Origin: a virus
Lineage: Duplodnaviria > Caudoviricetes
Virus record (IMG/VR): IMGVR_UViG_2871003000_000003
Coordinates: 1-64,000 of that record
Strand: one strand, 5' to 3'
DNA: 64,000 nt
In this document: positions 1,892 to 64,000 of the stretch, piece by piece
Numbering within the stretch: the first letter of the stretch is position 1
How the letters are laid out: each line of letters begins with the position of its first letter
Notes under the pieces: generated by a model
Told to the model about the DNA's origin: nothing
The model's input: the letters and a program-made list of their open reading frames with translations, nothing else
Databases searched by the model: none
Program-made: the position numbers and the translations under genes

Positions 1892-2851
1892 TTACATACT
1901 CTTTCTGTCTGCAATTTCAGCCATCTTTGCGTCATTCAATCTTGTATCCCCATGAACTCTTGAATACGACAGATATCCATTCATTCTTTCAATCTTTGTC
2001 AAATCGTTACTTCCACAATTCGGACAAATATCCATATTTAATTCTTCATGCCCGCAATTATTGCAGTACGCAAGTGATAAATTTACACCTTCATAAAACC
2101 CCATTGACATTGCCCGTCTTACAAGTGTCTTAATCGCTTCAATATTATATCCAATCGGGTACTTACAGTACTGAATACGTCCACCTTCGATATAATTCCA
2201 AAATCTATGTTCTAAGTCCTGTTTCTGAATTGGCGTAATATCCTCCCAAACACCACAATGAAAACTGTTGCTTACATATTCTCTATCTGATACACCAGGA
2301 ATGATTCCATATTTTTTACGAAACTGTTTTACCTGAAGTCCACATAAATTTTCTGCTGGAGTACCATAAATTGCATACAGCCAGCCATCTTCTTTTTTAT
2401 ACTCTTTTACTTTCATATCAATATATTTCAATGTTTCAACTGCAAATTCACCATCCTCAACAAGAGATTTACCATTGTATAACTGCTGTAGTTCATTTAA
2501 TGCTGTAATGCCAAATGACGCAGTCATAGGTTTTAATAATGGTTTAATCTTATCTGTTGGATTCAAATGTCCACCCAGAAATCCGCCCTCACAATATCCA
2601 AGCGGATTAGTTGACGCTTTCATCTCACCCAGATAATCATACGTTCTCTGATGTAATTTACGAATCATTTCAAGATAATAATCAAGAACTTCATGAAAAT
2701 CTTTATTTTCTTGTCTTGCCTTTGCAAGAATCATCGGGAGATGTAATGATACTGCACCGATATTGAACCTTGAAACAAAAATCGGTTCATCATTTTCATC
2801 CGCCGGCTCCATTCCCCCTCGTTCATACCAAGGAGAAAGAAATGCTCTACA
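1892..2851 (-). CDS. nrdD: class III ribonucleotide reductase, exon 2
   Basis: Starts at CRAFL (completes the MGCR motif); TPAENL, CxxC-CxxC Zn site, glycyl-radical motif RMNGYL. Confidence 0.93.
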   Translation of the reverse strand, partial: CRAFLSPWYERGGMEPADENDEPIFVSRFNIGAVSLHLPMILAKARQENKDFHEVLDYYLEMIRKLHQRTYDYLGEMKASTNPLGYCEGGFLGGHLNPTDKIKPLLKPMTASFGITALNELQQLYNGKSLVEDGEFAVETLKYIDMKVKEYKKEDGWLYAIYGTPAENLCGLQVKQFRKKYGIIPGVSDREYVSNSFHCGVWEDITPIQKQDLEHRFWNYIEGGRIQYCKYPIGYNIEAIKTLVRRAMSMGFYEGVNLSLAYCNNCGHEELNMDICPNCGSNDLTKIERMNGYLSYSRVHGDTRLNDAKMAEIADRKSM

Positions 2852-3126
2852 CATATTCATCAATTGTCACCAATTGTACTGACTAGCTTTTCCCTCTGAG
2901 ATGTCCTAATTCTCGTCATCAGGCGGTATCTTTGGAAACAGTGCTTATCTCTGTTTCTACGACGCTACACTCATCACGTCTAGTCGATTGACCTTGTATA
3001 AAAGGCACAGCTTCATCTATAGTACAAACGATCTCTCTCCTATAGACCTATCTGTTAGCAATTCAAACGAATCACACCCACTAAGCAAGTGGTTTAATAC
3101 CGTTTTACATGGGCTGATTTGCACTT
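2852..3126 (-). ncRNA. group I intron (275 nt, no ORF) in nrdD
   Basis: Exon 1 ends in U (ATGGGT), intron ends in G; IGS GCCCAT pairs with ATGGGT giving U-G at the splice site; P3 CGGTAT/ATACCG; P7 GACTA/TAGTC; P9 CAATTG-GTGA-CAATTG; removal restores SPMG|CRAF in frame. Confidence 0.9.
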
Positions 3127-5220
3127 ACCCATAGGACTAATAACTTTTCCGTATTTATGGTACATTTTAGACACTGTTGTATCTCCATCTAAACTTAACC
3201 AGTCTGGATACATTGTTTTTGCAGAAGTTTTAATTCCTTCTTCAAACAAGTCTTCGTTTACTTTACCTTTTCCGTGTAGCTCTTCTGTATAAAGAAATAC
3301 AAGTTTTGGGAACAATACAGGCTTTTTATTTCCGTCTTTTCCTTGTCCTTCTCTATGTACTCTAAGAAATGTTTTTGAAGCCATTTTAGCAAAAGAATCT
3401 GTTCCCAGACCAAATGTAATGGTGATGAAGGGATAGTCCCCTCTGCTGGATGAGACAGTATTAAATTTGTATTCGAGTCCTTGATAACCTTGTGCCATAT
3501 CACGTTCTACTTTTCTCATAGCGTAGTCATGAGCTTTCTGTTCAAAATCTGAATGTCTATAATCCAGTAAGTTATCTGCAATATCATAAAATTCACGTTT
3601 GTATTTTTCATAACTCTTTTCAGCATATGGCACTAACACTTCGTCAATCTGTGGAAGTGTAAAACCACCATATTCCTGACTCGCAGCGCTTAATGTAATA
3701 TCACCAATCACATCAAATGCTGTGTCTAATGTTTTTGGCTCGTTATACCACACATTACCCATTTCGAATCCACCACGCATTACTTCTGCGACATTAAACA
3801 AGCAACAGTTCCCTGTTGGAATTCCTCCTTCCAAAATAAAACTATGATCATCTTCTACTTCAAGACACCAAACCTCTGCTTTTGGATTAAGACAGTCTGG
3901 AACGATATTTTTTACCTTCCATGTTCTATCTGCCTGATTTGAATTGATTTGATAGTTTATTGTTGTTTTTTTTCTAACACCATAATTTGTTACTTCTCCA
4001 GTTTTGTTTTTTGTTGATGTAACATAATATCCAGCAATGTTTAATAAGTCATATATTTCGTTATTTAAATCTCCGGTCACCTGAACGCTTCTAAATTTTA
4101 TATTTTCACAATTTGTTAAAGCGCCATCAGCCGATAAAAATCCATCAATATAATATTTAATATTTTCACAATTTAACATCAACCATGGTATTTTTTTCTC
4201 ATGAATGTTCACCATTCTGACAATCCCATCACCATATAAACTCTGCGGATATGTTACAGAATATCCAACATCTGAGAATCTATTTGCAAATTCATTTTTA
4301 TGTCCACATAATCTTACATGCATTGTTGGTATTTTGTTATCTTCTACAATAGCCCCATCCCCCATAGAAAATCCAAGACACCATAACAATTTTTCAGTTT
4401 TGTTTAGTTCATCCCATGAATAATTTGTTATATCTGGAGCTGCGATTAATTTATCTCCAATTTTTAGATCTGTTGTCTCACTGCCGTCTTTCAAAATCCA
4501 TCTATGGTTTGCAGTGCAAAATACATCTTTTGTTTTGCTCGAACCTCTTTTAAAAGTTACTTTATTTATATTTTGCCATCCATACGACTTAACTATTGCA
4601 TTTTTCCATCTGCCTTTATGAGTTAAAACTTTTACATTGTCACCGTCTTTAAAATCATAAAAAGATTTAACTCCAAGTTCGGTAATGAAACGTGTGTCTC
4701 TTCTAAAGCAGTTCATCGTATCCCTTCTAGCTGACATGTCATGAATATAAATATATCCATCATTGATAGCCTGCCTTTCTTCTACTGTCAGGAAGAATTT
4801 CTTATACAACTGCTTGTTCAATTCATTAAATACAAGACTTCGCTTTGTAGATACGAGAGCACTATCAGTGTTACTGTTTTCCTTATCCCCGATGTACATA
4901 ATTTTCTGACTCTCTTCGTATACCGTATCCATCATATGTACAAAATCAAGTTTATAATTACGATATTGCTGATACTGATATCCTACTTTTGGAAACAAAT
5001 CAAGAAGTGTTTTTTCTACAATATTATGAATAAAACCTACAGGAACTTCGTCATTCTCAAAGTCTTCTTCATCAACCTCGTTAAGAACTCTGTTGCAGAT
5101 CATTCCATATTCATCTTGTGAAAATGTAAAATTTTCTCTCTGTGCAGATTTATCAATAGCATTAATAATTTTCTGTTCGTTATACTCTTCTAATGTTCCA
5201 TCCTTCTTAATTACTTTCAT
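3127..5220 (-). CDS. nrdD: class III ribonucleotide reductase, exon 1 (ATP cone; contains intein)
   Basis: N-terminal VIKKDG ATP cone, YIHD, QEYGG, FPKL, YPD; ends ISPMG. Confidence 0.93.
3808..4710 (-). mobile_element. intein with LAGLIDADG endonuclease, 301 aa
   Basis: Begins CFRRDT; block B TANHRW; LGFSMGDG and IDGFLSADG; ends VWCLEVEDDHSFILEGGIPTGN followed by +1 Cys; excision restores TMN|CCL. Confidence 0.92.
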
Positions 5221-5238
5221 CAAACACATCATCCTTTC

Positions 5239-5722
5239 TTACTTCTGAGAACTATCTTTTGCTGTCTTCGTTGTAGTTCTAGTTCTTTTGGTTTTCTGTT
5301 CCGTTGCATTATTCTCTTCTTTCGGTTTGTTTTCTTCCAAATCTTCATCATCAGAATCAGACCATTCATCATGACTTTTGTTACTTCTAAACTCTTCCAT
5401 AGTCACATCTGTACCTTTGAATGCACGAATACATTTTGCAACACCTTCAAACAGCGCCCAGATTGGGATCCACATTGTTGTACCGATTGCGAAAATCACT
5501 GTACCCAGTTGATTAAAATCCATGTTCGTCTCACCTCCTAACAAAACCACTACCACCATCTCTCACGTTTAAACATAAATGAGAGGTGTCATCAATATTT
5601 CCATGTGTTTTCGTGTGTCCAATACTATCAATTACATATTCTTCTTCTCCTAATCTAACTGTGATGAAATCGTCAGGATACATCCCTAACTCTCTCATCA
5701 ACATCCCACTTGTTCTAATCAA
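5239..5722 (-). CDS. two small hypothetical proteins (5239-5559 with TM segment; 5531-5722)
   Basis: Packed co-oriented ORFs. Confidence 0.6.
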
Positions 5723-32307: not shown

Positions 32308-34908
32308 TTAATTATTTGTTTTTGTAACTGCTTTTCTTACTAAATCAACTGGTATTACCATAAACGCAAGAACTACAATAATTAACCAATGATTGAAATC
32401 TAACGGTGTTACCTTAATCAATTCACCTGCAAAATTGCAAAGTATTACAGTAATCATAAAAATGCTAATTGCGATATATCCAAATAATTTATTTTTTCTA
32501 ATTCCTTTTAATAGATTGAAACTATCTGTTCTAATATTAAATCCGTTAAACACTGCCATAAAACATAACAATGCGAATCTCGCAGTCATTGCCTCTACAT
32601 CCGTTAAAAACATTTTAGAAATAGGACTAAGAATGATTACTCCATATAATGCAATAAAAGATATTGTACTAACTGCAATTCGTGTTTTGGCTCCCCTTAT
32701 AAATAATCCGGAACCTTTTTTAATTGGCTCTTCATACATGTATTCTTCTTTTGGTGGCTCTCCTCCAAAAGAAAGTGAATTCAACGAATCCATAATAATA
32801 TTTACAATAAGAATCTGTACCGATGCTAGTAATGATCCAACTGCTACAATCGGATACAACACACTCAAAATAAGTAAAGAAATGTTAATCGGTAACTGGA
32901 ACTCTAAAAACATCATAATGTTGTGCATAAATGTTCTTCCTAGTTCTACCGCTTTTACAACTGAAGCAAAATTATCGTCTGTAAGCACAATGTCTGACGC
33001 TTCTTTTGCAACATCGCTTCCTGTTTGCATTCCAAATCCAACATCAGAACGTTTTAATGCTGGCGAGTCATTTACCCCGTCTCCTGTCATCGCAACAGAT
33101 CTACCAATCTCTTGAGCTAAAGTAACAAGTCTCAATTTTGTATTCGGAGAGCATCTTGAAATTACTCTCAATGATGGGATAATTTCTTTGACATCTTCAT
33201 CACTCATATTTTCGAATTCATCATTTGTGAGAGCTACATCACCATCTTTGTAAATTCCGCATTCTTTTGCTACCGCAATTGCAGTTTCAATACAATCTCC
33301 TGTAATCTCAATAACTTGAATACCAGCTTTATGTGCAATATTCACTGCGTCTGGAACCTCGTCCCTAACAGGATCAACGACTCCAATAATACCAAGTAAT
33401 GACATATCTTCCGGTAGTTTATTCTCTTCTAACTTTTCATTTTTAGAAGACAACGCAATACATCTCATAGATTTCGTTGTCATTTCTCTAAGTTTATTCT
33501 GAATCGCTTCTTTGTCCTTAGATGTAAAAGATTTTCTATTTCCTTCCTCATCAATCATAAATGAACACTTTTCAATAATTCTCTCAGGCGCTCCTTTATA
33601 ATATGTAAGGTTGTCCTTTGTAGTAAACGCTGAATATTTATTACTACTGCTAAACACTTGCTTGTCTAACATTTGAATATTCTTATTAATATTTTTGTAT
33701 TCATCTGAATTAACTAAGGACATCATGGCTCTATCAATTGAATTTCCACCAGTAATCATCCCATCTTTGTCAAATGTAGAACTGTTGTTCAAAACAATGT
33801 TGTTTTTCATTTCATTCCACAATTTTGAATTCATATCAATTTCTTTTGTATTTGAACCAATAATTATCTTTGGAGTCATAACACCTGTTGTTAATGTTCC
33901 TGTCTTATCAGTACAAATAATGTCAACATATGCTAATTCAGGAATTTTACCTGGATTCTTGGCAAGGATATTGAACTTCTCCATTGTTTTTACGTTCTGT
34001 TTGGTAACAAGTTTTACAATTAATGGAAGTCCTTCCGGAACTGCAGCAACAACAATGGTTAATGCAACTGAAAAATTCTGTGCAAATTTCTGAATTAAAT
34101 TGAAAATGTCATCCGAAAAATATTTTGAAACACCAACTTCCATAATTCCAGAAACGGTAAGAACAATAAACGTAATTGATGCTGCAATCGTTCCCCACTT
34201 AGAAATAAAGCCACTTAAATTATCTAACGCAATATCAAGAGCTGTTTTAGGAGCCTCTAGTGTTTGCATTTTTACCAATGTATCTCCATTGACTGTATTT
34301 ACACCAACATCTGTGACAACCATTTTTCCTTCGCCGGACATCACGGTTGTTCCTGCAAACAAACAATTCTGATTTGTATACGCATCTGTCGATGTTGTTT
34401 TCTTATGAATATATCCATCAATCGGCGTTTTCTTACACTCTTTTGTTTCTCCATTAATTGCAGCATTGTTAACTGAAATTTTACCTTCCATAAGATATCC
34501 ATCTGCAAAAATCTCTTGTCCCATTCCTACACAAACAACATCTCCCACAACCAATTCATCTTTATTGATTGTTTGCAATTGACCATTTCGTATTACATCA
34601 CAATACCTAATAGATGTTTTTGCTCTTAATTCTGCTGCTGATTTTTGTACACCCAACCCTGTCTTAACCGCGATACAAGTTACAATTGCAAGAACAAACA
34701 TAATCATAAGCGGTTCAGATAATTCCATTACACCTAAAAACCCCAACACCATTTGCAACATGGCAATTGCAATTAAAATCATAGTGATTTTTTCACATAG
34801 AGCATCTTTTGCAAAATGATACCATTTTTTTAATTTCGGCTCTGGTAATTTATTAGAACCGTACTTTTCTCTGTTTTCCACAACTTGTTCATTTGTTAAT
34901 CCGTTCAT
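32308..34908 (-). CDS. P-type ATPase, P2 (Ca2+-transporting-like)
   Basis: PEGL, DKTGT, KGAPE, DP, TGDGVND, multiple TM helices; start at the SD-supported ATG at 34908. Confidence 0.93.
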   Translation of the reverse strand: MNGLTNEQVVENREKYGSNKLPEPKLKKWYHFAKDALCEKITMILIAIAMLQMVLGFLGVMELSEPLMIMFVLAIVTCIAVKTGLGVQKSAAELRAKTSIRYCDVIRNGQLQTINKDELVVGDVVCVGMGQEIFADGYLMEGKISVNNAAINGETKECKKTPIDGYIHKKTTSTDAYTNQNCLFAGTTVMSGEGKMVVTDVGVNTVNGDTLVKMQTLEAPKTALDIALDNLSGFISKWGTIAASITFIVLTVSGIMEVGVSKYFSDDIFNLIQKFAQNFSVALTIVVAAVPEGLPLIVKLVTKQNVKTMEKFNILAKNPGKIPELAYVDIICTDKTGTLTTGVMTPKIIIGSNTKEIDMNSKLWNEMKNNIVLNNSSTFDKDGMITGGNSIDRAMMSLVNSDEYKNINKNIQMLDKQVFSSSNKYSAFTTKDNLTYYKGAPERIIEKCSFMIDEEGNRKSFTSKDKEAIQNKLREMTTKSMRCIALSSKNEKLEENKLPEDMSLLGIIGVVDPVRDEVPDAVNIAHKAGIQVIEITGDCIETAIAVAKECGIYKDGDVALTNDEFENMSDEDVKEIIPSLRVISRCSPNTKLRLVTLAQEIGRSVAMTGDGVNDSPALKRSDVGFGMQTGSDVAKEASDIVLTDDNFASVVKAVELGRTFMHNIMMFLEFQLPINISLLILSVLYPIVAVGSLLASVQILIVNIIMDSLNSLSFGGEPPKEEYMYEEPIKKGSGLFIRGAKTRIAVSTISFIALYGVIILSPISKMFLTDVEAMTARFALLCFMAVFNGFNIRTDSFNLLKGIRKNKLFGYIAISIFMITVILCNFAGELIKVTPLDFNHWLIIVVLAFMVIPVDLVRKAVTKTNN

Positions 34909-34909
34909 C

Positions 34910-37297
34910 TTACTCTCCTTTTTCATTTTCTTTATGTAAATCACCAATCTCTTTCATGGCGCGTACATACGCTTCTTTCTGAATATTAATTGCTCTTTCA
35001 CGTTTTTTCTTATCTCTTTTTACTTTTCGCTCATGAGCAAGTCTCTTTTTCATTGCTTCTTCATGTTTCTTATTCTCTTCTTCAACAAGTTTTCTATCAT
35101 GTTCTTTAATTGCCTTATCGACCATCTTTACATATTTCTTTTGGTAAGAAAGTTCTGTTGCCATATGCTCAATTCCTTCTAATGTATATTTGTCTTTATA
35201 CATTTTTTTTGATAAAGCAACAAATAAACCTCTCTGTAAATCAAACTTGTCCTTGTCATCACAAACAACTTTCTCCTGTGTGTTATCACTAAAATCAACT
35301 CTAATTACTTTATTTGGAAATAAAATTTCAAAACTAGAAATTTCAATGTTATTATTATCTTCGTATACAGATGATTTAGAAATTTCTAATCCAATTCCAC
35401 TGCACATCTCCTTACATAGATTATAAGTCGTCTTTACTTTATAAAAATCTTCCTTCATTCTCTATTCTCCTTTTATCTATATGTTTTATAATATCTATAA
35501 CAAAAATTAGTCAAAAAATAATAAAGCTATATACATATTAAATTTATTTCATTTTATTTAATCATAATTCCGAAAAATCAAAGTGCTCACCGCAGCTACA
35601 CTCAACCGTCCCAAACACTCCAATTGATGTTGGCGTAAAATGATATGTATAGCTTCCGCCAATTGCTCCACCATACCTAATCTTTTTAGAAGATTTTGTA
35701 ATTCCATGAACTTTTTCTTCGTGTTCATTCTTCCATTTCTTAATTCTCTCATTTTCAATCTCTGTAATTGGAAATCCGCGCAGAAGATCTTCTCTCATAT
35801 TATCTAACTGTTGATTCATCTTCTGAATTTCTTCATCTTTGTCGTATTCGTCTGTCAGTCTTTTATTCTCTTTTACAAGACGGTCAATGCGCATATCTTT
35901 GTTTTTACATTCATCCATAATAAAATCAACTGCGTCCTGAACTGTCCTACACGTTTTCTCTGATCTCACCAGCATAATTAGTCCTCTTTTTTCTTATTCT
36001 CTTCTTGATTCACTCCAACATTCGCTATTTTATAAAGAATATCGTATAACCATCCACGAAAACTACACTTTCGTGATTCAAATTTATCAGCTATGTAACA
36101 AAGTAATATAATTACAAATATAATTACAGGTGAAAACCATCCGCATAAACATATACATAATAAATCTCTTACATTAAAATAATCCTTTAAATCTTCTTTG
36201 TTATATTCACTTTTCCTTAAAGTACTAAGAAGCAAAAACAGCCATGAAAGAAAACCTACAAAAATCCACGATACAATAATCACTAAAATCCACCTCCGTT
36301 CTACTGCAGTATAAAACCAAGATTTAATTCATTTGACTTGTTCATTTGTTCTTCCTTACAATTCAATATAATTCCATCTTTTCTTATCTTCGTATTTCCA
36401 CTGGATCTGTCCCTGGTAAATTCTCGTCTCGATATTTACTACATTGTCCATACCTAGGATAAATTCTCTATAAGAATCAATATCTCTTTCTGACAAATCA
36501 TGAATCGTTTTAAAAATATCTAAATTCTTACAAATATGTTCTACTGACCACTCGTAATCTGTTAATGAAAGCTGTCTTTCAAATTATTCTTGCACGATTA
36601 CATTATTATCTTTAGGATTATCTTTTACATGTAGTTCTGCATAAACTTCATAGACATCCGACTTAAAGAATGAGTTACTGTAAACAAGTCCATCTAATAA
36701 ATTCACCGCACAATTTTCTCCGATATCTGAAAGTTTCATATAGTAAGTTTCTCTGAAGCAAAATACATGTCCTGATTTAATGTTCATTACATTTGTCATC
36801 ATTTTCTTATTCGATACAATTTTCATATAATCAGTCATCCTTCCTATTTTTATAAATGACACCATTTATTTACTAAGTCCGCCTGCTTTTCTGTGAGTTC
36901 TGTAAGAAGAATCTCATTTAATAAATCAAGTTGCAATTCAGCCATCTCTCTACAAATCTCTCCGCACTCTGGCTCCGGTTTTTCGCTACATTTTTTACAT
37001 GCTCCTGTACAAATCTTCATATTTAAATCGCTCCATTTCTTTCTTCTGTTTCTGAATCTTAATTGCCTGATCACAAATAATCTCGCGTAAAATTTCAATA
37101 TCTTGTTTATGCATATCAGTAGATGTATTAGCCATTGTATTTGTTTTTATCAATGAACAAATACACTCCATACATTCTGTCATATCATCAACAGTAATAT
37201 CTGATTGACATCCATTTTCTACCATTAAATATAATTCACTCAAATTCTTGTTATATTGTCTAATTGTATCTAAATTTTCTTCAGATAACTTTCTCAT
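34910..37297 (-). CDS. hypothetical proteins (34910-35458, 35562-35975, 35978-36283, 36584-36865, 36995-37297)
   Basis: Co-oriented ORFs, no recognisable motifs. Confidence 0.6.
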
Positions 37298-60674: not shown

Positions 60675-60892
60675 ATCGGTATTTACGATCTTATATCACA
60701 TGCTGTTCACAAATATTTTCAAATAGCGACAAATGAAATAGTTTGTTGAATCAACGTTTACAGTTTCTAAATATTTGATTTACTGCAGGTGATATTTGAT
60801 TATAAACACCGATGAAAATCATATGCAGAACTTTATGTATCTTATTTTATTGAGGGTATGAAACATGTATAGAAATTTATTCCGCATATGAA

Positions 60893-60963
60893 TTGTGAAT
60901 AAAGGATTCGAACCTTTTCTAATGCTATATACCGCATCGTGCTACCATTTACACTAATCCACA
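60893..60963 (-). tRNA. tRNA-like element / pseudo-tRNA with aberrant anticodon arm
   Basis: Acceptor TGTGGAT/ATTCACA, D arm GTGT-AAATGGTA-GCAC, T arm AAAGG-TTCGAAT-CCTTT; anticodon arm ATGC-GGTATATA-GCAT; no encoded CCA. Confidence 0.7.
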
Positions 60964-60971
60964 ACTATCTT

Positions 60972-61659: not shown

Positions 61660-61889
61660 ATTTCAATCCTCATACTAATGTAAACTACATCTCCATTCCA
61701 TTCAGAAGTTCACAGGTGATATGCAATTTAAATCCTCATACTTATGTAAACTACATCATACAATGCCCCTGCTATGTTCTCATCTGTTTGCGATTTCAAT
61801 CCTCATACTTATGTAAACTACATCTTATTAAATCAGATGTTATTAAAACATACGGGTATTTCAATCCTCATACTTATGTAAACTACATC
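61660..61889 (-). CRISPR. CRISPR mini-array, 4 x 32-bp repeats, 3 spacers (34, 35, 33 bp)
   Basis: Repeats at 61660-61691, 61726-61757, 61793-61824, 61858-61889; minus-strand consensus GATGTAGTTTACATAAGTATGAGGATTGAAAT; the two leader-distal copies each carry one substitution. Confidence 0.95.
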
Positions 61890-62096
61890 ATCAAAAATAC
61901 ACAAATATGACATATCTATTTTATGTAACTTACACAATTCTAAGGTTACAAAAGCGTTATCCGTTTTCGTATATGTAAATAAATGATTACTACTCACTGA
62001 TTTCTTTTATCTACTTTAGTGCGAATAAACCGTATAACTTATGTTCACTTCATATTCGCACATGGCGGCGTTGAACCTGCAACCATGTATATGTAT
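61890..62096 (-). promoter_or_regulatory. CRISPR leader / possible RNA scaffold
   Basis: AT-rich 207 bp with 9-bp inverted repeat GTGCGAATA/TATTCGCAC (62019-62061) and further hairpins. Confidence 0.7.
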
Positions 62097-63501
62097 TTAA
62101 GCTATTTGCTTCTTATATTCTTTCTCTTTAGCCATATTCAAAATATTAATTGCAGCATTAATGTCTCTATCATGAATCGCTCCACATTCAGGACAAATCC
62201 AGCCTCTTATTTTTGTATCTTTTGTTTTTACGTTCACAAAACCACATTTACTGCATGTTTGTGTTGATTTTTTATATTGTCCAATTGCAACAACAGGTAC
62301 ACCATATTCTTCACCTTTTCTTTTTAATAAAGTAAGAATTTCTCCCATCGCCGCATCAGATAAATTATCATTTCTCACTCTTGTTTTTCTTGACATACAT
62401 ATCTTTAACCGACAAAGTTTCTATTCCAATAAAGTCTGATCTTTTTATAACTTCTAACACCATATTCTCCATATGATATTTTCTTTGTCGTGTTACCTTT
62501 CTTTCTAATTTTGCTTTTTTAACTTTTGTTTCTATGTATCTTTTAGAAGGCTTTAATTCAACATTTTCTTTTCTTAATTCACTTAACCTTTTCCTAAACT
62601 CAATATTGCTATACCCTTGCCTTCTGGATAATTGTCTATTTAACATCTCACGATGTTGACGAACACTTCCGTCTTTACCATTTTTGAATCTAGGATTATC
62701 ATATTTTGTTCCGTCTGATAAAGTCATCAAAGTTGAAATTCCAACATCAATTCCAATTTCTCTTTTCTCTTCTTCTACTTTCACAATCTTATAAATATCT
62801 TTCATACATAGCTGTAAAAAGTAATCACCACAATTATCTTTTTTTACAGTTGTTAATATTTGTTGTTTCTTATGTAAATTCACATATTCTTCAAAATTCA
62901 TCGTGCATGATGAATCAAACCAGATATTTTTTAGGCATCCTTTAATCCCCCTAATCTTTACCTTTCCGATTTTAGCTAAATTAAAATATGCTACATTTTT
63001 ATTCTCATCATTAAAGCTCATTTTTCTCAGAAATTCTTGATATGTATAACTTGTTCTCGGATGTTTCTTTGAATAATATGGAGGTTTACTGTTCTCAATC
63101 GGTCTTTTAACTCCCTTTCCGTTTGTTTTCTTATTAGAATTTTCTCCACTCACTTGAGCATCCAATCGCTTCGACAAATCACACAAGAAAACTCCATTCT
63201 CACCAGACAAAGCACCCGCTGGAATCAATTTAATGTCTTCTCTCCTACTTCTTAACACATCCAAATACTGTTTCTTTGCAATAGACTTTACATCCGGAAA
63301 ATGAACAGTTTGTCCTCCATTCTTTTTGTCTGGTCTTTCAATTGTATTAACTTTATTTTCAAACATATCATAAACAGCCATATTACATGCTTTATGTAAA
63401 GCTAAGATAATTCTATCTATTAATTCACTCTGTTCTTTATTTGGATACATTCTAAAATTGAAAGTATACACCGGTATTTTTATAACTTTTTCAACTAGCA
63501 T
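62097..63501 (-). CDS. TnpB-derived / Cas12f-like type V effector, about 467 aa if the one-base frameshift near 62397 is corrected
   Basis: N-terminal FRMYPNKEQ; RuvC-I GIDVG, RuvC-II IETL, Zn finger CSKC/CPEC, RuvC-III DRDINAA; AAGGAGG SD; adjacent array. Confidence 0.85.
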
Positions 63502-64000
63502 TTAACCAGACCTCCTTTTGCGACATTTCATAATTTAGTGTGTTTACAAAATCTTCTATTGCACACAAACAATATTTTGCATATTGCTTTGATTCCACAA
63601 TTAAATAGAAATCATCCATGTATCTTCCATAATATTTGACACCCAACTCTCCAGTTATAAAATGATCAAAACCAGACAAATATAATAAAGCAAATACCTG
63701 ACTAACTTGATTTCCAAGAGGCAAGCCATTTCCGCTTGTGCTATCAATAAATTTTTCACATAACCAGTACGTATCTGGATTAGATATAAAATATGAAACA
63801 ATATCTTTCAGAATATTATGATCAATATTATAGAAAAATTTTTTAATATCACCTTTAATAATCCAACAATCATATCCGTATTTCTGATATGCTAAATACA
63901 TTTGATATTTCAGACAATCCAAACCAAACAATGTTCCTTTTCCTATTTGTCCGGCATAATTCGTATATATAAATTCATTACTTAAAATAGGAAGAAGCAC
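63491..64000 (-). CDS. DGR-type reverse transcriptase; start lies outside the window, C-terminus appears truncated
   Basis: GKGT, KGDIKKFF..IDH, GLPLGNQVSQ (GxxxSQ), YGRYMDD; stops about 40 aa after YMDD. Confidence 0.85.
   Translation of the reverse strand: MLLPILSNEFIYTNYAGQIGKGTLFGLDCLKYQMYLAYQKYGYDCWIIKGDIKKFFYNIDHNILKDIVSYFISNPDTYWLCEKFIDSTSGNGLPLGNQVSQVFALLYLSGFDHFITGELGVKYYGRYMDDFYLIVESKQYAKYCLCAIEDFVNTLNYEMSQKEVWLNAS

Follow-up and report, generated by a model that had tools for sequence, protein, structure and literature searches.

A predicted split TranC nuclease in a Clostridia prophage and the apparent homology of its guide-RNA scaffold to type I-C CRISPR leaders

Introduction

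Two questions about compact CRISPR effectors are open: by what route those derived from TnpB came to have arrays at all, and how the arrays are updated in type V systems that lack cas1 and cas2. Both are touched by a locus in a Clostridia prophage where a TnpB-like gene is followed by a non-coding stretch and a short CRISPR array. TranC systems, the transposon-CRISPR intermediates described in 2025 (as cited in PMC13565253 and bioRxiv 10.64898/2026.03.27.714800), include clade 11, whose arrays have repeats of 32-36 nt (median number five) and no adaptation genes in their vicinity (bioRxiv 10.64898/2026.03.27.714800, 10.1101/2025.09.28.678669). A preliminary description of the phage DNA had pointed to a type I-C-like leader and repeat end on a type V-like array and had proposed that host Cas proteins add the spacers used by the phage effector. 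Here we ask what the effector, the non-coding stretch and the array are, and from where the spacers may come.

Locus organization and genome context

The window, i.e. the whole stretch of DNA that was analysed (64,000 nt), comprises bases 1-64000 of a 165,772-bp IMG/VR provirus record that is rated 99% complete and has a G+C content of 32.7%. The DNA polymerase III alpha of the phage shares 52% identity with that of Clostridium phage c-st and 45% with that of phiCD211. The exact protein encoded by ORF1 of the TnpB-like gene occurred in 228 blocks of public assemblies, many of which are named human-gut metagenome scaffolds and one of which is a 3.57-Mb chromosome (GCA_042847265.1). A 53%-identical homologue was found in Blautia caecimuris. 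All window genes are on the minus strand, and in minus-strand order the region reads as follows.

First in order, minus strand: 3' part of a DGR reverse transcriptase (RT)
63501-62368, minus strand: ORF1 of the TnpB-like gene, 377 aa, WED/REC and RuvC-I/II part
62396-62097, minus strand: ORF2 of the TnpB-like gene, 99 aa, overlapping ORF1, zinc-finger TNB domain and RuvC-III
62096-61890, minus strand: 207 non-coding bases between ORF2 and the array
61889-61594, minus strand: CRISPR array of four repeats, one decayed repeat and four spacers
After the array, in minus-strand order: a 124-aa ORF, a zinc-ribbon ORF and a tRNA

Nuclease gene, 207 nt and array form a block (63524-61566) in the window, where the RT is cut to 261 aa. 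The sister phages L008-L011, of which the RT is 98% identical, carry a full 345-aa RT and a radical-SAM-like gene, not the nuclease and array block. Since they differ by the whole block, its three parts were gained or lost together. The linkage of gene, scaffold and array was kept in every homologue inspected, at 36-100% identity and in unrelated genomic contexts.

Cas1, Cas2, Cas4, Cas5d and Cas7 were not found anywhere in the 99%-complete phage record, in a search for these five proteins, nor was Cas1 found in two sister phages of 161-164 kb. Inspection for IS200/IS605 traits showed that the effector gene is single-copy in the 166-kb genome and has no repeated flanks, and no TnpA-like ORF was present among the neighbouring ORFs scanned. 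In an Rfam scan, the tRNA alone reached the gathering threshold.

Other features of the genome were recorded as well. The DGR cassette is spread over window positions 63491-64000 and positions 64276-65730 of record G000 (L006), with the target ORF at 65730-64966, the VR at 65066-64985 and the TR at 64477-64396; TR and VR differ at adenines only. In L089 and L090 a second, different TnpB (395 aa, 2636-3823) lies directly upstream of the TranC gene, at the place of the RT remnant in the window. The tRNA (60892-60964, minus strand, 46 bits in Rfam), for which ARAGORN names no amino acid (odd anticodon call), is 82-84% conserved in sister phages. A P-type cation ATPase of 879 aa is encoded at 32308-34947 and represents unusual phage cargo.

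A split effector

Protein comparisons identified the product of the TnpB-like gene as a predicted TnpB-derived TranC effector, type V-like and related to LaTranC. ORF1 matches the Pfam family OrfB_IS605 (E 3.9e-13) and aligns to residues 4-384 of LaTranC (PDB 9jfo, E 3.8e-39); the alignment shows conservation of D in IDVGI and of E in IETL. ORF2 matches Cas12f1-like_TNB (E 8.8e-21) and aligns to residues 393-474 of LaTranC, with the CxxC..CxxC zinc finger and the DRDINAA motif conserved; the E value was 6e-22 with LaTranC vs 4.5e-5 or worse with Cas12f. The predicted effector keeps the RuvC D-E-D residues and the zinc finger of LaTranC. The 478-aa protein P0094 was tried as LaTranC and rejected, because it is not LaTranC.

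The two ORFs overlap by 29 nt (62368-62396) in the +1 frame, and the same split was found in all relatives at 62-100% identity. In relatives at 53-55% identity (L108, L113-L115) the gene is split in another way, the two ORFs overlapping by 4 nt (ATGA), and unsplit effector forms of 448-476 aa are also found among the relatives. Against relatives, dN/dS was 0.07-0.16 for ORF1 and 0.05-0.16 for ORF2, with dS near or above 0.75. These low values in both halves indicate that the split gene is functional and not decaying. A sequencing error or recent decay as cause of the split was rejected on account of the conservation of, and the purifying selection on, the two halves. With two ways of splitting, the effector may be a miniature nuclease that naturally has two subunits; recoding would be another explanation. 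We infer that the two-part effector would cleave DNA under RNA guidance, for which the TTC-flanked protospacers described below are indirect support.

A conserved RNA scaffold between effector gene and array

Homologues at 36-100% identity all have the same non-coding stretch, and after it a small array that ends GGATTGAAAT or in a closely similar sequence. An alignment of 12 units (A2) gave a consensus fold of five helices with 40 pairs, which in the window are located as follows.

62085-62063, minus strand: helix 1, TGGTTGCAG ... CGCCGCCA, near-invariant in the 12 units, 96% paired
62062-62018, minus strand: helix 2, inverted repeat GTGCGAATA ... TATTCGCAC (62061-62019), A2 columns 60-67 with 97-104
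62010-62004 with 61954-61948, minus strand: helix 3, ATAAAAG with CTTTTGT, long-range, enclosing a variable insert
61945-61941 with 61870-61866, minus strand: helix 4, CCTTA with TGAGG of the repeat
61936-61924 with 61887-61875, minus strand: helix 5, anti-repeat TGTGTAAGTTACA with bases of the repeat

In this fold 94.5% of the cells were paired, compared to 28-47% with the partners slid, and compensatory changes occurred in 16 of the 40 pairs as against 0-5 with slid partners; none of 500 shuffles reached the observed values. In relatives, changes from G-C to A-U and G-U leave helix 2 intact. Four of the seven pairs of helix 3 changed on both sides, e.g. from A-U to G-C in four sequences, and in helix 4 a U-A to A-U swap was seen in five sequences while the C-G pairs were invariant. 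Compensatory changes were found in 7 of the 13 pairs of helix 5, and the 5' half of the repeat and the anti-repeat change jointly between the lineages WIN, L108, L110, L111 and L116. The last eight bases of the repeat, ATTGAAAT, are unpaired in front of the guide, an architecture known from compact type V and TranC guides (bioRxiv 10.64898/2026.03.27.714800). The comparison shows the 207-nt stretch to be, by all appearances, a conserved tracr-like RNA scaffold with an anti-repeat.

Much of what the preliminary description had suspected here is recovered in the fold. The ACATGG/CCATGT hairpin corresponds to the conserved helix 1, the inverted repeat about 130-170 bp upstream of the first repeat is helix 2, and the suggested tracr/omega-like scaffold is borne out by the five helices and their covariation. 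The region of a further hairpin, at about 61919-61953, is indeed structured; it contributes the 3' strand to helix 3, CCTTA to helix 4 and the anti-repeat to helix 5. The statement that there was no clear anti-repeat has to be revised, as TGTGTAAGTTACA co-varies with the repeat.

Scaffold and array are duplicated in L111 (2793-3700 and 5341-5900), L112 (2730-3990) and L240 (2880-3600), with 2-3 units per locus, some of them without an adjacent effector gene. The stand-alone units in L111 and L112 begin at helix 1, behind their own TTGACA-17-TATAAT, one of which is perfect. Because a unit sits after a perfect promoter sequence of this kind, the 5' end of the RNA can be placed at helix 1, which is the 5' end of the tracr-like RNA. 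A promoter scan between ORF2 and the scaffold in the window revealed no promoter-like site, and read-through transcription of the window scaffold from the effector gene is therefore likely.

Homology to type I-C leaders and repeats

As a reference for type I-C, a metagenome scan for I-C-type arrays was used, which returned 80 loci. Cas4-Cas1-Cas2 or Csd1-Cas7(-Cas4) was confirmed beside five of the reference arrays, and one reference Cas1, from Roseburia sp., is named type I-C. The TranC stretch, minus the repeat, was made into a profile and compared by nhmmer with 29 genuine I-C leaders, of which it matched 16 at E <0.01 (best 8e-9). The part matched is helix 2 (GGTGCGAAT..AAGTGAACATAAATT..GATTCGCAC). 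Counted from the first repeat, this upstream element occupies positions -173 to -129 in the window; in the I-C leaders it spans -172 to -112 and comes immediately after cas2. With one I-C leader, L122, the alignment extends from helix 2 as far as the junction with the first repeat. No counterpart of helix 1 was found in the I-C leaders compared. Conserved upstream elements in I-C leaders have been described, with unknown role (10.1101/2022.05.30.494039).

The L122 array has three repeats (2026-2170) and is located directly after Csd1-Cas7-Cas4 (genes 2252-5458). Overall, no leader matches the TranC leader more closely than that of L122, and the 16-nt junction of L122, TTTGTGTATTTTTGCT, is identical to that of L089.

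The second shared element is the leader-repeat junction.

61905-61890, minus strand: leader end TTTGTGTATTTTTGAT, I-C-like leader-repeat junction motif

For 33 distinct I-C arrays, the 16 leader bases that adjoin the first repeat were made into a junction matrix, with a consensus near TGTGCATTTTTGCT; the I-C array of B. halodurans has the leader end GATTTTCGCT (PMC6519985). The TranC relatives scored 8-12.7 bits with this matrix, where the median of the I-C junctions themselves was about 8.6, and their scores were equalled by only 1-177 of 331,514 phage 16-mers. The junction of the window fitted the I-C motif ...TTTTGCT weakly, with 4.9 bits, which is in the top 0.5% of genome 16-mers; the low score is due to GAT in the place of the I-C GCT. 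The junction scores of the relatives are in the I-C range. The junction motif is part of a loop in the RNA model; even so, it is conserved, and like that of I-C, in lineages with as little as 36% identity. Among the arguments that integration, and not the folding of the RNA, accounts for the retention of the junction, this is the strongest single one. In L111a and L111c the I-C upstream element is replaced by a short hairpin and the arrays of L111 and L112 still differ, indicating that the upstream element is not indispensable.

The repeats lead to the same comparison. Minus-strand repeats start at 61889, 61824, 61757 and 61691; each has 32 nt and 0-1 mismatch from GATGTAGTTTACATAAGTATGAGGATTGAAAT. 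A fifth, decayed repeat with 7 mismatches (61625-61594) forms the far end of the array. The window spacers measure 33, 35, 34 and 34 nt, so that the repeat and spacer lengths given in the preliminary description, 32 bp and 33-35 bp, were found again. With its 32 nt and the end GAGGATTGAAAT, the window repeat can be set beside the I-C expectation of 31-33 nt and an end (GT)GGATTGAAAT. Published I-C repeats, such as those of Roseburia hominis (PMC4645204) and Bifidobacterium (PMC4521832), are 31-33 nt long and end GTGGATTGAAAT (PMC6519985, PMC4645204, PMC4521832). The likeness to I-C leaders and repeat ends, which the preliminary description had proposed, is thereby supported, and the upstream element indeed lies at the same distance from the first repeat. 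It had also remarked correctly that the strong I-C repeat hairpin is missing: the G+C-rich palindromic core of I-C repeats (GTCGC...GCG) is absent, and the core of the phage repeat is A+T-rich and pairs with the anti-repeat. A self-hairpin of the repeat in the I-C register was rejected because G7/G17 become A7/A17 in relatives without pairing. In some lineages (L108, L112b) a strong repeat hairpin before the handle is retained. When 185,579 species genomes were searched for the repeat end ATGAGGATTGAAAT in two neighbouring copies, the only arrays returned were I-C-looking ones of Rhodothermales, and none was from a Firmicute host.

Taken together, the comparisons of leaders and repeats show that the 207-nt stretch and the repeat ends are, as far as sequence can tell, homologous to type I-C leaders and arrays.

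Spacers, targets and PAM

The 31 unique spacers from all arrays are mostly 34 nt (18) or 35 nt (8) long, with four of 33 nt and one of 31 nt; the spacers of type I-C arrays measure 33-36 nt. The preliminary description had looked to spacer additions at the leader end, and the spacers are indeed not identical in all relatives, the differences lying at that end. The window and L087, near-identical in all else, differ only in the leader-proximal spacer, and L090 has the array of L089 with one spacer newly added at the leader-proximal end; the spacer sets of L091 and L092 are unique. Ten other independent samples all carry the identical four spacers of the window (10/10), which suggests that acquisition is rare and turnover slow.

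Window spacers 1, 2 and 3 and the unique spacer of L087 match one phage family of about 40 kb with 0-2 mismatches and on the same strand. The target contigs are IMG/VR entries of 22-41 kb (L235-L238, L241, L242), those matched by window spacers 1-3 including contigs of 38-41 kb. Judging by these matches, the array has a competing phage of some 40 kb as its target. All four protospacers are preceded by 5'-TTC, and no consistent motif was present on the 3' side, from which it follows that the array is read on the minus strand. The PAM of LaTranC is 5'-TTC as well (bioRxiv 10.1101/2025.09.28.678669), and that of type I-C is GAA/TTC, GAA being the PAM of I-C Cas4 (PMC6519985). Window spacer 4 gave no match and the sole match of the L091 spacer was its own array. 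No protospacers were found in INPHARED phages, nor in the phage's own genome or the sister loci.

The protospacers lie within or close to genes that have no assigned function and are next to a helicase. That the newest spacer of L087 targets the same phage family again is reminiscent of primed acquisition; it could also reflect repeated exposure.

Source of the spacers

The explanation that we consider probable is that the TranC scaffold of the phage doubles as an I-C-derived leader, with host I-C enzymes supplying spacers for the phage nuclease. The minus-strand RNA would fold into helices 1-3, after which the anti-repeat and CCUUA would pair with repeat bases 2-24 and leave AUUGAAAU single-stranded just before the guide. 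The first repeat would pair in cis and thus form a natural single guide, whereas later repeats would pair in trans. The effector would consist of the two polypeptides of ORF1 and ORF2 and cut DNA beside 5'-TTC. As DNA, the same stretch would descend from an I-C leader, of which it has the upstream element (about -130 to -173) as well as, at -1 to -16, the junction motif. Cas4-Cas1-Cas2 of a type I-C system of the Lachnospiraceae host would insert new spacers at the TranC-proximal repeat, picking TTC-flanked fragments and thereby the PAM that is read by the effector. Type I-C is present in Blautia producta (PMC7708048). Since the phage is without adaptation genes, insertion by host I-C Cas4-Cas1-Cas2 is the most likely route, as we infer it from the genome content. 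The TTC at the protospacers could also be read in another way, as the result of selection for effector function and not of choice by Cas4.

Alternatively, the leader may be a relic. An ancestor of this TranC clade would then have captured an I-C leader and array on which no Cas1-Cas2 acts today; spacer differences would be due to array recombination or loss and the sequences would be kept for RNA roles only. The identical arrays in ten of ten samples and the degenerate GAT junction of the window would fit such a history, as does the short hairpin that remains of helix 2 in units that have lost the I-C element, which indicates that helix 2 has a role in the RNA. This account agrees poorly with a junction motif that is placed in a loop of the RNA model and yet remains I-C-like in distant relatives. 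It would also have to accommodate new spacers that appear at the leader end with I-C lengths and TTC PAMs, and the unique spacer of L087, a fresh match on the same target phage. We regard a leader that has fallen silent as rather unlikely.

Dual use of the crRNAs, by the phage TranC and by a host I-C Cascade-Cas3, can be proposed because the 3' end of the repeat equals the I-C handle and the PAM is shared. The repeat end GGATTGAAAT is as in I-C (PMC6519985), the PAM is TTC, and L108 and L112b have the strong repeat hairpin before the handle. The window repeat lacks the G+C-rich I-C hairpin, and in L111 the 5' half of the repeat co-varies with the anti-repeat and not with itself. It is the G+C-rich hairpin of I-C repeats that Cas5d recognises. 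Such sharing of guides appears less likely still.

That the array is an orphan I-C mini-array working only with host Cas proteins, next to an unrelated insertion of a TnpB-like gene, would agree with its I-C-like leader and repeat end and the missing Cas1, Cas2, Cas4, Cas5d and Cas7 but is already disfavoured and very improbable, given that every homologue has gene, scaffold and array in synteny, and this in different contexts, that anti-repeat and repeat co-vary, and that the gene is single-copy, under purifying selection and without IS copies or a TnpA-like ORF among the scanned neighbours.

The preferred explanation, of a scaffold that also serves as leader for host I-C enzymes, can be extended to the origin of the clade. 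The LaTranC-like clade may have been born by fusion of a TnpB guide-RNA gene to a captured I-C leader and array, helix 2 being an exapted I-C leader element. The clade would since have lived as an adaptation parasite of host I-C systems, as reflected in leader, repeat ends, spacer length and TTC PAM, and the effector described here would be a stable two-subunit enzyme. For this larger scenario as a whole we see somewhat less than an even chance.

For one clade, the locus offers a concrete and testable answer to the questions posed at the outset: a leader of I-C origin, I-C integration signals that are kept, and an I-C PAM that is read. An I-C leader element of unknown function is seen here retained by a second system. 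The naturally split miniature nuclease could interest engineers of compact editors.

Comparison with known systems

Among phage-borne arrays that rely on host Cas proteins are mini-arrays and the arrays of huge phages that share host repeats. The present locus is similar in being a virus array without adaptation genes, with host-like repeats and a competing virus as target. It is unlike them in that the phage has its own effector and guide scaffold, so that only adaptation would be outsourced.

With type V-F (Cas12f) and V-U systems the locus shares a miniature TnpB-derived RuvC effector and a tracrRNA that is encoded between this effector and the array. A stem formed with an anti-repeat and, ahead of the guide, a short single-stranded segment are likewise common to them. 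The similarity of the protein to Cas12f is weaker than to LaTranC (for ORF2, E 4.5e-5 or worse vs 6e-22). Many Cas12f loci carry their own cas1, cas2 and cas4.

The type I-C systems of Firmicutes (B. halodurans, Roseburia) resemble the phage locus in repeat length, the first G and last 10 nt of the repeat, spacer length, the TTC PAM, an upstream leader element at equal distance and the junction motif ..TGTGcATTTTTGCT. Unlike these systems, the phage has a repeat without the G+C-rich hairpin (GTCGC...GCG) and no cas5, cas7, cas4, cas1 or cas2, and its leader gained the anti-repeat and helices 1 and 3 and sits after a TnpB-like gene.

To TranC, as represented by LaTranC (PDB 9jfo/9jfq), the locus is alike in full-length protein homology, a small array of 32-33-nt repeats, a tracr with anti-repeat between gene and array, the absence of adaptation genes and the 5'-TTC PAM. 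It differs in that the effector consists of two ORFs under purifying selection, in a 166-kb Clostridia prophage, and in a leader homologous to type I-C leaders. A link between TranC and type I-C was not found in the accessible literature, a search that did not extend to the founding 2025 TranC paper. The effector family, the tracr architecture and carriage by phages are already published; relative to known TranC systems, the conserved split of the effector and the homology to I-C leaders appear to be new.
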